64,000 bases of DNA from Thermoanaerobaculia bacterium (GTDB lineage Bacteria; Acidobacteriota; Thermoanaerobaculia; Multivoradales; SZUA-115): contig DASUEU010000051.1 of assembly GCA_036274895.1 (NCBI GenBank), forward strand, positions 142,407-206,406, read 5' to 3'. This document shows positions 19,201 to 22,200 of this stretch, one piece after another; within the stretch, counting starts at the first letter, position 1, and every line of letters starts with the position of its first letter. The position numbers and the translations under genes were made by a program. The notes under the pieces were generated by a model that saw nothing but the letters and a program-made list of their open reading frames with translations, was not told the DNA's origin and made no database searches.

Positions 19201-22200
19201 AGTCGAAGCGGGAGGTCTGGGTGTGCACCATCAGCCCGCTGAGCACCAGGCCCCCCAGGTCGCCCGGGGTCCAATCGGTGCGCCGCACCGAGCCCGAGAT
19301 CTGGAAGATCGGTGTGCGATCCATGGCCCGGGGCACGCCCAGGCTGTCCACCAGCCGCTCGAAGGGCAGGTCCTGGTGGGCGTAGGCATCGAGGGCCACC
19401 CGTCGCAGGCGGTCCAGGGCTTCGTCGAAGCCCGGGTCCCGCGACAGGTCGAGGCGCAGCACCAACATGTTCAGCAGGAAGCCGATCAGCCCTTCGAGCT
19501 CACGCCGGCCGCGGTTGGCGATCGGCGTGCCGACCACCAGGTCGGTCTGGCCGGAGAGCCGCCCCAGCAGCACCATGAAGCCGGTCATCAGGGTCATGAA
19601 GCTGGTCAGCCCCGAGCGGTTGGAGAGTTCCATCAGGCGCTGGCTCAAGGCCAGGGGCAGCACGTGGCGGTGCGTCGCCCCCCGCCCGCTGGCCAGGGCC
19701 GGGCGCGGCCGATCGGTGGGCAGCTCGTGGAGATGCGGCGCCCCCGCCAGCTGCTGGCGCCACCAGGTGAGCTGGCGCTCCAGCTCCTCGCCGGCCAACC
19801 ATTGCCGTTGCCACACCGCGTAGTCCGCGTACTGCACCGGCAGCGGCGGCAGGGCCGGCGCCCGCCCCTCGGCTGCGGCGCGGTAGCAGACGCCCAGCTC
19901 CTGGATCAAGAGGCCCATGGCCCAGGCGTCGGTGACGATGTGGTGCTGGGTCATCAGCAGGGCATGGTCGTCCGGCGCCCGGCGCAGCAAGGTGCCGCGC
20001 AGGGCCGGGGCCTGGCGCAGGTCGAAGGGGATGGCGCACTCGCCGTCGGCGAGGGAGGCCACCGCGGCGTCGGCGTCTTCGGCGCGCAGCCCGGAGAGGT
20101 CGATCACCGGGATGAGGAAGGCCACCTCCTCCTCGATCACCTGCACCGCGCGGCCGCCCTCGTTGGCGAAGCGGGTGCGCAGCACCTCGTGACGGGCGAT
20201 GACGTGGCGGAAGCTCTCGGCCAGCACCTCCGGCCGGAAAGGGCCCTCGAAGCGCGTGGCCGTGGCCACGTTGTAGGCCGCGCTGGCGCCCGTGAACTGA
20301 TCGATGAACCACAGCCGCTCCTGGGCGAAGGAGAGGGGCAGCGGGCCCTCACGGGGTACCGGCACCAGCGGCGGCATGGCCTGCTCCCCGGCGCTCTCGC
20401 GGCGGGTCGACTCGACCGCCTGGGCCAACTGCCGCGGCGTGGGATGCTCGAAGACCCGCCGCAGGGGCAGCTCCACCTCGAGACGCTCGCGGATCCGCGA
20501 CACCACCCGGATGGCCAGCAGCGAATGGCCGCCGAGCTCGAAGAAGCTGTCCTCTATCCCCACCCGCGCCACCCCCAGCTCCTCCTCCCAGATCTGGCAG
20601 AGCACGGCCTCGGTGGAGGTCGAGGGGGGCACGTGCTGGCGACCCAGGGCGCCCTCGGGAGCCGGCAGGGCGGCCCGATCCAGCTTGCCGTTGGGGGTCA
20701 GGGGCAGCCGCTCCAGGCGCAGGCAGACGGCCGGCACCATGTAGCCCGGCAGCCGCTCCGCGAGCCAGGCGCGCAGCTCGTCCGAGGTCGGCGGGGCCTC
20801 GCCCTCCGCGGCCGTGGCCGGCACCCACCAGGCCGCCAGCAGCTCGCCGCCCGCCGCCGTGCGCACCGCCACAGCCACCTGGCCTACCCCGGGATGGCGT
20901 TCGAGCGTGGCCTCGATCTCCCCCAGTTCGACCCGGAAGCCGCGCAGCTTGACCTGGAAGTCGAAGCGGCCGAGGAAGTCGAGATCGCCGTCCGGACGCC
21001 GGCGCACCCGGTCTCCCGAGCGGTAGAGCCGCGCCCCGCTCTGCCCCGAGAAGGGGTCCGGCACGAAGCGCCCGGCGGTCAGCCCGGGCCGGCCCAGGTA
21101 GCCGCGGGCCAGGCCCACGCCGCCGATCAGCAGCTCCCCGGGCACGCCCAACGGCGCCAGGCTCCAGCCGCTCGCCGAGGGCCCCCTCTCCACCACGTAG
21201 AGCTGGGTGTTGGCCAGGGTCAGGCCGATCGAAGGCAGCCCCACCTCGCCCGAGCCCCAGGGTGCCACCGGCACCGCCGTCGAGAGCACGGTGTACTCGG
21301 CCGGGCCGTAGGTGTTCGAGAGCACGTAGGGAGCCGCGGCCAGGGGCCGCCCCACCAGGCGGTCGCCGCCGATGATCACGGTGCGCACGCCGATCGCCCG
21401 CTCCGCGCCGATCGGCTCGCGCAGCACTCCCTCGACCAGGGCCGTGGGCAGGTAGGCCAGGGTGATCCGCTCGTCCTGCCACCAGTCGACCATGCCGGGC
21501 GCCGACAGCCGGGTCTCGTCCTCCGGGATGTGCACGCTGGCCCCCGCGGCGAGGTAGGGCCAAAGCTCCCAGATCGAGGCGTCGAAGGCCGGCGAGGCGA
21601 CCTGGGTGGCGCGGTCGGTCTCGCTCAACCGGTAGTAGTCCTGGTGCCAGCGCACCATGTTCAAGAGGCCCTCGTGGGGGATCTGCACCCCCTTGGGCTT
21701 GCCGGTCGAGCCCGAGGTGTAGACCACGTAGGCCAGGTTGGCGGGATGGACGGCGACGGGAGATCCCTCGTCGCTGCGCTCCTCGGGATGACATTCCGGG
21801 GCGTTGGCGGCGAGAGGCTTGCCCTGAGGAGCGCAGCGACGAAGGGTGCCAGGCACTTCGGGAGCGTCCACGCAGAGCACCGTCGCCTCGGTCGCCGGCA
21901 GCCTCTCCAGCAGGTCGCGCTGGGTGAGGATCACCCGCGCCCCGGCGTCCTCGAACAGGTAGGCCAGGCGCTCTGGTGGATACGAGGGGTCGAGGGGCAC
22001 GTAGGCACCGCCGGCGAGCATTACCGCCAGCGAGCCCAGGATCCGCTCCGGCAGGGTGCGCTCGGCGAGCACCACCACCCGTGCCTCCGGCCCCACTCCC
22101 AGCCCGCGCAGCCGCTCCGCCACGGTCCAGGCTCGCCCGAGCAGGTAGCCGTAGCTCCACACCTCGCCGCGCCGCGAGATCGCCACGGCGTCCGGCCGCC

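Follow-up and report, generated by a model that had tools for sequence, protein, structure and literature searches.

Palindromic repeats of the repetitive extragenic palindromic (REP) type are known from within bacterial genes as well as from between them. Here we describe what are probably such intragenic repeats in a hybrid nonribosomal peptide synthetase (NRPS)-polyketide synthase (PKS) gene cluster of a Thermoanaerobaculia bacterium, carried on a stretch of 64,000 nucleotides (contig DASUEU010000051.1, positions 142,407 to 206,406; the whole stretch is called the window below): an 81-nt insert between core motifs A2 and A3 of several adenylation (A) domains, together with a separate repeat pair in an interdomain linker. 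The closest described relatives belong to the CGTC superfamily of REPs surveyed by Di Nocera, De Gregorio and Rocco (2013, PMC3733652). In the sections of that survey on which our comparison draws, the repeats carry a CGTC tag (with the variants TGTC and CCTC), form inverted dimers, and are mostly intergenic. The CGTC-1 family has a stem of 8 to 9 bp starting with A-T, T-A, a loop of 4 to 5 nt, and a tail near CCA. The dimers are mostly of the HH type, with the tags outside, the TT type being rare; the repeats are reported to be without an associated transposase and come from five phyla, mostly from alpha-Proteobacteria. The same sections equate RPE-4 and RPE-6 of R. conorii with CGTC-4 and CGTC-1, respectively, mention that REPs sit inside target palindromes in some genomes, and state that intragenic GTAG and CGTC dimers encode 20 to 30 residues thought to be neutral in linkers or loops. 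An NRPS is among the examples in the supplementary table: Psyr_1958 of P. syringae, annotated for amino acid adenylation, contains an in-frame GTAG-1 dimer encoding 37 residues. The phenomenon of intragenic REP and RPE insertion is thus already documented, with an NRPS precedent included.

Further systems are relevant for comparison. Rickettsia palindromic elements (RPEs) lie in frame in functional genes, and the short peptides that they encode are thought to be compatible with protein fold and function (Ogata et al. 2000, in PMC10969869). REPINs consist of two inverted REPs and a spacer that together form one hairpin unit, single REPs being decayed pairs (Bertels and Rainey 2011, PMC3116915). 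The a2-a3 site of A domains is interrupted by whole methyltransferase domains in TioN and MarQ (PMC11355689; PMC8097286).

In the window, the A domains of modules 7, 9, and 4 carry an in-frame insert of 81 nt (27 codons), which a codon alignment places right behind the EVPGT codons. The inserts and the complete unit of module 7 are as follows.

21764..21844, minus strand: insert of module 7 (NRPS-C), encoding LRRCAPQGKPLAANAPECHPEERSDEG; RNA z -4.6, DNA z -5.7; G+C at third codon positions (GC3) 18/27.
21760..21793, minus strand: complete tagged unit TGTCATCCCGAGGAGCGCAGCGACGAGGGATCTC of module 7, 33/33 against the consensus of a dispersed repeat family, with the tag towards the spacer.
15287..15367, minus strand: insert of module 9 (NRPS-C), encoding LRRFAPQGEPRATNHPNCHPEERSDEG; complete unit at 15283-15316.
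36085..36165, minus strand: insert of module 4 (NRPS-B), encoding PRRPAPRGKPRATNGPGGLPEERGDEE; arms partly diverged, unit with 3 differences from the consensus.

In each insert, a left and a right arm of 23 nt, 91% complementary to each other, enclose a spacer of 35 nt. Module 7 contains a perfect 16-nt inverted repeat, GAGGAGCGCAGCGACG, at 21769-21784 (minus) and 21826-21841 (plus), which is part of longer arms of 23 nt (21765-21787 and 21823-21845) with 35 nt between them; the arms of module 4 (36087-36108 and 36144-36165) are arranged in the same way. Both arms of the pair are of a long form, and the tags point inward (TT). Modules 7 and 4 have 98 to 99 residues between A2 and A3; the figure is 74 to 80 for modules 8, 5, 6, and 3 and 73 for module 1. 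Every copy keeps the reading frame, with neither stop codons nor frameshifts. An initial annotation of this DNA had described a hairpin insert in these three modules, translated in frame, and both parts of that description hold.

The folding of the inserts was compared with that of 200 dinucleotide shuffles. The three full copies, folded as RNA, gave z values between -4.0 and -5.0 for either strand, and the module 7 copy, folded as DNA, gave z = -5.7 and -6.0; none of the 200 shuffles folded as well as the native sequence. The folding check proposed in the initial annotation (overall z -4.0 to -6.0) thus came out in favor of a hairpin. When at most 3 mismatches were allowed, the 26-nt arm matched the window 5 times, against 0.00 expected by chance. 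We consider it likely that the inserts are intragenic palindromic repeats of the CGTC/TGTC class of REPs that are carried as tolerated passengers.

The arm belongs to a widely dispersed family. A scan for its 21-nt core, based on one genome per species and giving a lower bound, found it in at least 120 loci, mostly of Acidobacteriota, four of them from Thermoanaerobaculia (L026, L030, L040, and L053). Other hosts among the matches listed are Anaerolineae, Gemmatimonadota, Burkholderiales, Bacteroidota (Cytophagia), Ignavibacteria, and Planctomycetota. The flanks GTCAT[CT]...GG[GA]ATC are common to about 100 of the 128 matches listed, and the base preceding GTCAT in dispersed copies is T in 69 and C in 13 of 89. 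When the window was compared with the family loci by BLASTN, the match was confined to the 32- to 35-nt unit, at 100% identity. The units of modules 7 and 9 show no difference from the 33-nt consensus (0/33), while those of modules 4, 5, and 3 show 3/33 each. Modules 7 and 9 have the tag TGTC-AT, module 5 has CGTC-AG, and modules 4 and 3 have GGTC.

Bona fide dispersed copies lie in non-coding DNA. Coding-like open frames hold 3 of the 101 copies that have enough flank, and since all three are without the GTCAT flanks, they represent chance matches in ordinary genes. Other long open frames across family copies proved to be antisense or composite, and a GC3-based test left no bona fide in-frame copy. 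Half of the high-GC family hairpins are flanked by non-coding sequence on both sides, and no orientation bias of the family hairpins relative to flanking genes was detected.

The usual hairpin of this family, TGTCAT-CCGAGGAGCGCAGCGACGAGG-GATC, is 63 to 117 nt long, with the tags outside, and is seen in many phyla. Its 5' unit is long-form and its 3' unit short-form (CCTCG-CTNCGCT-CGG), with two 3-nt bulges; the inner stem covaries (double changes in 7/25 pairs), and the interior variants include GAGCGNAGCGA and GAGGCGCGAAGCGCCGA. In the window hairpin, by contrast, the partner arm lies upstream, is long-form, and has no tag. Under a covariance model derived from 26 family hairpins, the window copies reach only 13 to 22 bits, through the 5' unit alone. 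The membership in a dispersed class of palindromic repeats that the initial annotation had proposed stands for the arm unit (33/33), while the hairpin as a whole is non-canonical, with the tag inside and two long arms. The whole element including its spacer has no copy outside the NRPS genes, either in the BLASTN comparison of the window with the family loci or in 854 kb of repeat-bearing loci. Rfam at the gathering threshold gave no hit in the window and none covering the element in 18 family loci, plasmid BLASTN with the canonical family hairpin gave no match, and a literature search on the arm strings returned unrelated primer matches only. Weak additional hits of the regex and covariance-model searches, in the window and in the loci of relatives, were ordinary coding sequence of T domains and C domains.

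Upstream of many family copies (L026, L036, L043, L060, L079, L117, and L129), the 5' part (GTCATCCCGAGGAGCGC...) occurs in one to three truncated tandem copies, and at 4900-5400 of locus L113 there is a tandem array of whole family hairpins with a period of about 106 nt.

With respect to the CGTC superfamily as characterized in the sections cited above, the A-loop element shares the TGTC/CGTC tag, the A-T, T-A start of the stem, and the inverted dimer that can fold as a long hairpin. It differs in dimensions: in the single long-form unit, a 17-nt interior, GAGGAGCGCAGCGACGA, is enclosed by 5 canonical pairs (ATCCC/GGGAT) and the tail is CTC, whereas the described units have an 8- to 9-bp stem, a 4- to 5-nt loop, and a CCA tail. 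Since stem, loop, and tail are all off, the element is CGTC-like and falls outside the four defined families. Unlike REPINs, with their GTAG tags and RAYT transposase, it has a TGTC/CGTC tag, and no transposase was found in the ten flanking ORFs scanned. Psyr_1958 resembles the present case in that a REP dimer sits in frame within an NRPS; as far as the supplementary table goes, its repeat differs in being GTAG, RAYT-associated, and present in a single copy, while the repeat here is of the CGTC type. RPEs share with the window the in-frame insert, the intact gene, and the fold-compatible site, and differ in organism, repeat sequence, and length (about 150 bp for RPE-1, 81 nt here); they also represent many separate insertions in unrelated genes, whereas here one origin appears to have spread over paralogous modules of one cluster. 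The DNA mini-hairpin motifs GCGNAGC and GCGNNAGC (PMC13037366) are matched by the unit cores GCGCAGC, GCGAAAGC, and GCGCGAGC, a resemblance only; no fold is predicted for the single long-form unit. To the eye, such a unit shows a symmetric layout in which tandem G.A pairs surround GCGCAGC, and self-folding on this pattern was rejected, the nearest-neighbor energies being no better than those of shuffles (z +1.1).

We also asked whether the insert occurs in other A domains or elsewhere in protein space. The closest A-domain homologues show 40 to 57% identity over the full query, with a few shorter partial matches of up to 72%. None of the 24 homologues inspected has the insert, and their loop has the length of that in module 8. 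A word-indexed protein search with the A-domain query returned only proteins shorter than about 370 aa and never the NRPSs of the window itself; the same type of search with a 50-residue loop gave no candidates and is uninformative, since the index also missed the window's own NRPSs. With the 42-residue loop as query, phmmer run exhaustively against 1.84 billion representatives recovered NRPS-C (E = 4e-31), NRPS-B, and 11 small ORFs, with no other large protein containing the insert peptide and no domain-bearing protein beyond the cluster's own NRPSs. The 11 ORFs (72 to 375 aa) repeat CHPEERSDEGS together with the other-frame peptides LSSRGAQRRGI and VIPRSAATR and have no significant match in Pfam or NCBIfam; judged by these repeated peptides, they are spurious calls over repeat clusters. 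That repeats of this class are often mis-annotated as small ORFs had been anticipated in the initial annotation, and these ORFs bear this out. Patterns spanning the junction of arm and A3 gave 0 hits in two metagenome scans.

The codon composition of the inserts is foreign to the genes. Their GC3 is 0.63 to 0.70, while the genes have 0.94 (P = 1e-4 to 2e-6), and the GC3 troughs over 13,055 codons comprise the three inserts, which are the deepest, a segment at 45891-46013, the beginning of NRPS-A, and the 3' portion of NRPS-C. The inserts thus keep a non-coding codon signature. An ordinary lineage-specific A-domain loop, palindromic by chance or through protein constraint, would agree with the fact that the A2-A3 length varies among A domains. 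Such a loop would not explain why 33/33 nucleotides agree with a repeat that is scattered over many phyla, nor the low GC3 within high-GC3 genes, the absence of the peptide from every other large protein searched, or the failure of all 200 shuffles to fold as well. The arm identity and the composition refute this explanation, and we regard it as scarcely credible. The absence of the insert peptide from homologous A domains also disposes of the conserved loop that the initial annotation had named, in combination with a lack of other copies, as the finding that would speak against a captured repeat.

The A domain of module 7, modeled with AlphaFold2 (mean pLDDT 86.4, pTM 0.80), matched solved A domains with TM-scores of 0.65 to 0.82. 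The insert, residues 150-176, lies within a region (141-185) that has no secondary structure in the model, with pLDDT 45 to 66, and is flanked by strands at 137-140 and 186-192; when the domain is aligned with LgrA (6mfy), the insert stands opposite a gap. The insert thus probably forms 27 residues of a disordered, solvent-exposed loop, as the model predicts. Cores A3, A5, A7, A8, and A10 are intact in modules 3 to 9. The position is known to be permissive from TioN and MarQ, which are interrupted at the same A2-A3 site and likewise retain the A-domain fold. The difference is that their inserts are folded catalytic domains of about 400 residues, while here 27 residues of low-complexity coil derive from non-coding DNA. 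Capture in a variable loop of an A domain, as originally suggested, agrees with the insert-free homologues and with the low-confidence coil of the model.

The remaining modules differ in what they retain of the element and of the loop around it.

32898..32930, minus strand: remnant in module 5, right-hand unit alone, GTCAGCCCGAAGAGCGCAGCGACGAGGGGTCTC; GTCAT arm at 32900-32925.
44051..44083, minus strand: remnant in module 3 (NRPS-A), right-hand unit alone, GTCATCCCGAGGAGCGCCGCGGCCAGGGATCTC; GTCAT arm at 44053-44078.
18572..18586, minus strand: mini-palindrome GAAGTGCCTGGCACC (EVPGT) of module 8, un-inserted state, outside the repeat element.
29689..29751, minus strand: loop of module 6, with a 33-nt in-frame tandem duplication, 1.9 copies (PEMAGTSDDGL / PEVPGTSVDGA).

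Modules 5 and 3 had been said to keep one arm, and each indeed has the right-hand unit alone. Compared with its sister module 4, to which its flanks are 88 to 94% identical, module 5 has lost 66 nt, which took away EVPGT and the left arm as well as the larger part of the spacer. The deletion in module 3 has other end points and lies between CCCGAAG-like direct repeats. Because the end points differ, at least two independent decay events have taken place, which agrees with the differential decay proposed at the outset. Modules 1 and 2 have neither insert, arm, nor mini-palindrome, also as described.

The element was originally counted in seven modules, a number that has to be lowered to five (7, 9, 4, 5, and 3), as modules 8 and 6 are un-inserted. 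What these two share with the others is the mini-palindrome GAAGTGCCTGGCACC, found at 21845-21859, 15368-15382, 36166-36180, and 18572-18586 in modules 7, 9, 4, and 8, respectively, and twice in module 6 (29701-29715 and 29734-29748). Its presence in modules 8 and 6 and its duplication in the latter were correctly noted, whereas its assignment to the element does not stand: the GTGCCAGGCAC/EVPGT piece, the GTGCCTGGCAC palindrome, and the 35-nt spacer are all absent from the 854 kb of repeat-bearing loci, so the GTGCCAGGCAC piece and the spacer are host loop sequence and not part of the element. We also considered module 6 as carrying a right-arm remnant and rejected this in favor of the tandem duplication of the un-inserted loop. 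The A2-A3 loop changes in length even without the repeat element, as the module 6 duplication illustrates. A near copy of the mini-palindrome, GAAGTGGCTGGCACC (PEVAGT), occurs at 25534-25548 in the PKS-like region of NRPS-B, around residue 4182; this copy outside the A domains may be due to chance or to a small conversion.

The spacers of the three full copies are 74 to 77% identical, and their junctions and reading frame are the same, which points to a single origin of the insert. Repeated independent insertion at one hotspot, with the small host palindrome CCGAAGTGCCTGGCACCTCGG as its target, is in our view very improbable, chiefly because a spacer foreign to the dispersed family would hardly be so similar in three copies, at the same junctions and in the same frame, and because module 9 shares its upstream flank with modules 7 and 8, as expected of a conversion tract. 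Repeated insertion would account for the fact that presence of the insert does not track module relatedness, the sister modules 4/5 and 7/8 differing in insert state. It would also fit the position of the insertion point next to a host palindrome with 10-bp arms, the REPs within target palindromes mentioned for some genomes in PMC3733652, and the second repeat pair in the same cluster. The copying of the insert by module duplication, as first proposed, is supported insofar as the copies are homologous, spacer included; simple vertical copying fails for module 9 and for the two sister pairs.

Module 9 stands out in its identity to module 7. The flanks of the two are 66 to 70% identical (0.68), while the insert region matches at 92/102 positions (90%; binomial P = 1.6e-7) and is the most conserved stretch between these modules, on a par with the catalytic cores. 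This excess identity suggests an inter-module conversion tract, maintenance of the arms at the DNA level, or both. Within the insert, modules 7 and 9 differ at 1/46 arm positions and 8/35 spacer positions (Fisher p = 0.004). In module 4, the arms (7/46) and the spacer (8/35) have decayed at similar rates. One pair shows a compensatory change, U-A to C-G, between modules 7 and 4, for which selection and quasi-palindrome template switching would be equally good explanations.

These data bear on whether the hairpin is kept for a role in cis, co-opted either to stabilize the mRNA or pause translation, or as a DNA or protein-binding site that promotes inter-module recombination. We consider such a role doubtful. 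The consensus-identical arms of modules 7 and 9 beside their less similar spacers, the core-level conservation of the insert between these two modules, the compensatory change, and the hairpin z-scores of -4 to -6 would all be expected under it. Against it, four of the seven related modules have no intact hairpin, although their motifs look undamaged, the arms of module 4 decay at the pace of the spacer, and quasi-palindrome template switching together with gene conversion could maintain complementarity without selection. It is likewise improbable that the arms are actively maintained, by selection or by conversion from genomic copies, the hairpin then acting as an A2-A3 recombination hotspot or as an mRNA structure in the operon of about 39 kb. 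If this were true, a selfish REP dimer would have become a driver of NRPS module and sub-domain shuffling.

Several observations weigh against the insert being a passively tolerated REP-type repeat. The consensus-identical arms of modules 7 and 9, with their differing spacers, exceed what plain neutral decay would give, judging from the alignment. As regards the features of a MITE, the insert is bounded by its 23-nt inverted repeats, and comparison of the junctions with modules 8 and 6 revealed no convincing target-site duplication. The arrangement with the tags inside and two long arms was found in 0 of 42 full family hairpins, and no canonical copy of either repeat family of the window was found in its 25 kb of non-NRPS sequence or in 36 kb from two relatives. 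Surface exposure of the loop, finally, depends on a predicted model.

A passenger repeat nevertheless remains the likely reading, and its history might have been as follows. A stop-free 81-nt TT dimer would have entered the variable A2-A3 loop of an ancestral A domain in the NRPS-PKS cluster of a Thermoanaerobaculia bacterium, adding 27 loop residues and leaving the catalytic motifs intact. Module duplication would then have carried it to other modules, with the help of one or more short tracts of gene conversion between modules, among them that of module 9. Erosion would have followed by the independent deletions in modules 5 and 3, the insert being originally absent or cleanly lost in modules 8 and 6. 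In a separate event, an unrelated CGTC-1 pair would have been inserted in the linker between the T domain of module 2 and the C domain of module 3 (T2-C3).

This second pair coincides with the GC3 trough at 45891-46013.

45921..45997, minus strand: second in-frame inverted pair, in the T2-C3 linker of NRPS-A; GC3 trough, 23-nt spacer, tags inward.

Its 27-nt arms (45921-45947 and 45971-45997) are 81% complementary. The unit on the coding strand reads CGTC-ATTCCCGC-GAAA-GCGGGAGT-CCA, and that on the opposite strand reads CGTC-ATCCCCGC-GCGA-GCGGGGAT-CCA. The DNA folds of the pair gave z -5.2 and -4.2, and that of the single unit z -3.7. The pair adds about 25 residues (GMDPRSRGDDGGEEVSSARHSRESGSPGW) to the linker, which is 91 residues long, compared with 65 to 67 in five other T-C linkers. 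The unit pattern was found in at least 120 IMG/VR loci; among 159 dispersed copies, GTCAT is preceded by C in 107 and by T in 44, 122 have GAAA as their loop, and 117 have CA as the next two bases. Both units have the CGTC tag, the 8- to 9-bp stem with its A-T/T-A start, a 4-nt loop, and the CCA tail that define CGTC-1, and on these sequence features the pair belongs to the CGTC-1 family as described in the cited sections of PMC3733652. In contrast to the mostly HH dimers reported there, it is a TT dimer, which makes it atypical and still within the described range. Both dimers of the window are thus of the form that is described there as rare, and their host is a member of Thermoanaerobaculia.

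For annotation, this means that low-complexity stretches of 25 to 30 residues in the loops and linkers of NRPSs can stem from the translation of REP DNA and, where they do, represent neither specificity determinants nor docking elements. For engineering, the A2-A3 loop and the T-C linker appear to tolerate about 27 foreign residues naturally, which may guide the choice of insertion and splice points. The un-inserted, full, half-deleted, and converted states found in one cluster make up a natural series on the decay and homogenization of palindromes within essential coding sequence. The CGTC/TGTC class of REPs is documented here for Acidobacteriota, together with an abundant long-form variant that occurs in many phyla and has no Rfam entry.

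The cluster that carries the repeats lies in a window of 72% G+C and consists of three co-directional genes with overlapping stop and start codons.

38091..52430, minus strand: NRPS-A, 4779 aa; modules 1-3, then a PKS-like region and a T domain.
23770..38094, minus strand: NRPS-B, 4774 aa; C-A4-T-C-A5-T-C-A6-T, a PKS-like region of about 1500 residues, and a T domain.
13262..23770, minus strand: NRPS-C, 3502 aa; C-A7-T-C-A8-T-(C)-A9-T-TE.

The gene limits agree with the products on record (4779, 4774, and 3502 aa), and each of the three proteins is a singleton at 90% clustering. The HtpG protein encoded in the window assigns its source to Thermoanaerobaculia (Acidobacteriota). The overlaps, at 38091-38094 (ATGA) and 23768-23772 (one base), suggest translational coupling of the genes. 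The C-terminal regions of about 1500 residues in NRPS-A and NRPS-B contain a GHSxG motif and a second carrier domain and, judged by these, look like a PKS module. The GC3 dips at the gene ends, 52314-52430 (the first 39 or so codons of NRPS-A) and 13262-13465 (the last 70 or so codons of NRPS-C), could reflect a start-codon mis-call or relaxed composition.

The A domain of module 9 (14165-15814) is divergent, with 57% protein and 66 to 70% DNA identity to that of module 7, and its A2 core is degenerate (GGASVLLDPDHP). In the C domain that precedes it, the HHxxxDG motif was not found. Module 9 may differ in function.

The close relative GCA_044868285.1 (L132), whose HtpG is 94% identical, has the genes for HtpG, an M20 peptidase, an HTH protein, a protein of unknown function, and an ABC transporter in the same order as the window. 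Its contig stops 345 nt into the next gene, at the place where the window has the start of NRPS-A. By this gene order, an orthologous NRPS cluster is probably present in GCA_044868285.1 and fragmented in the assembly.

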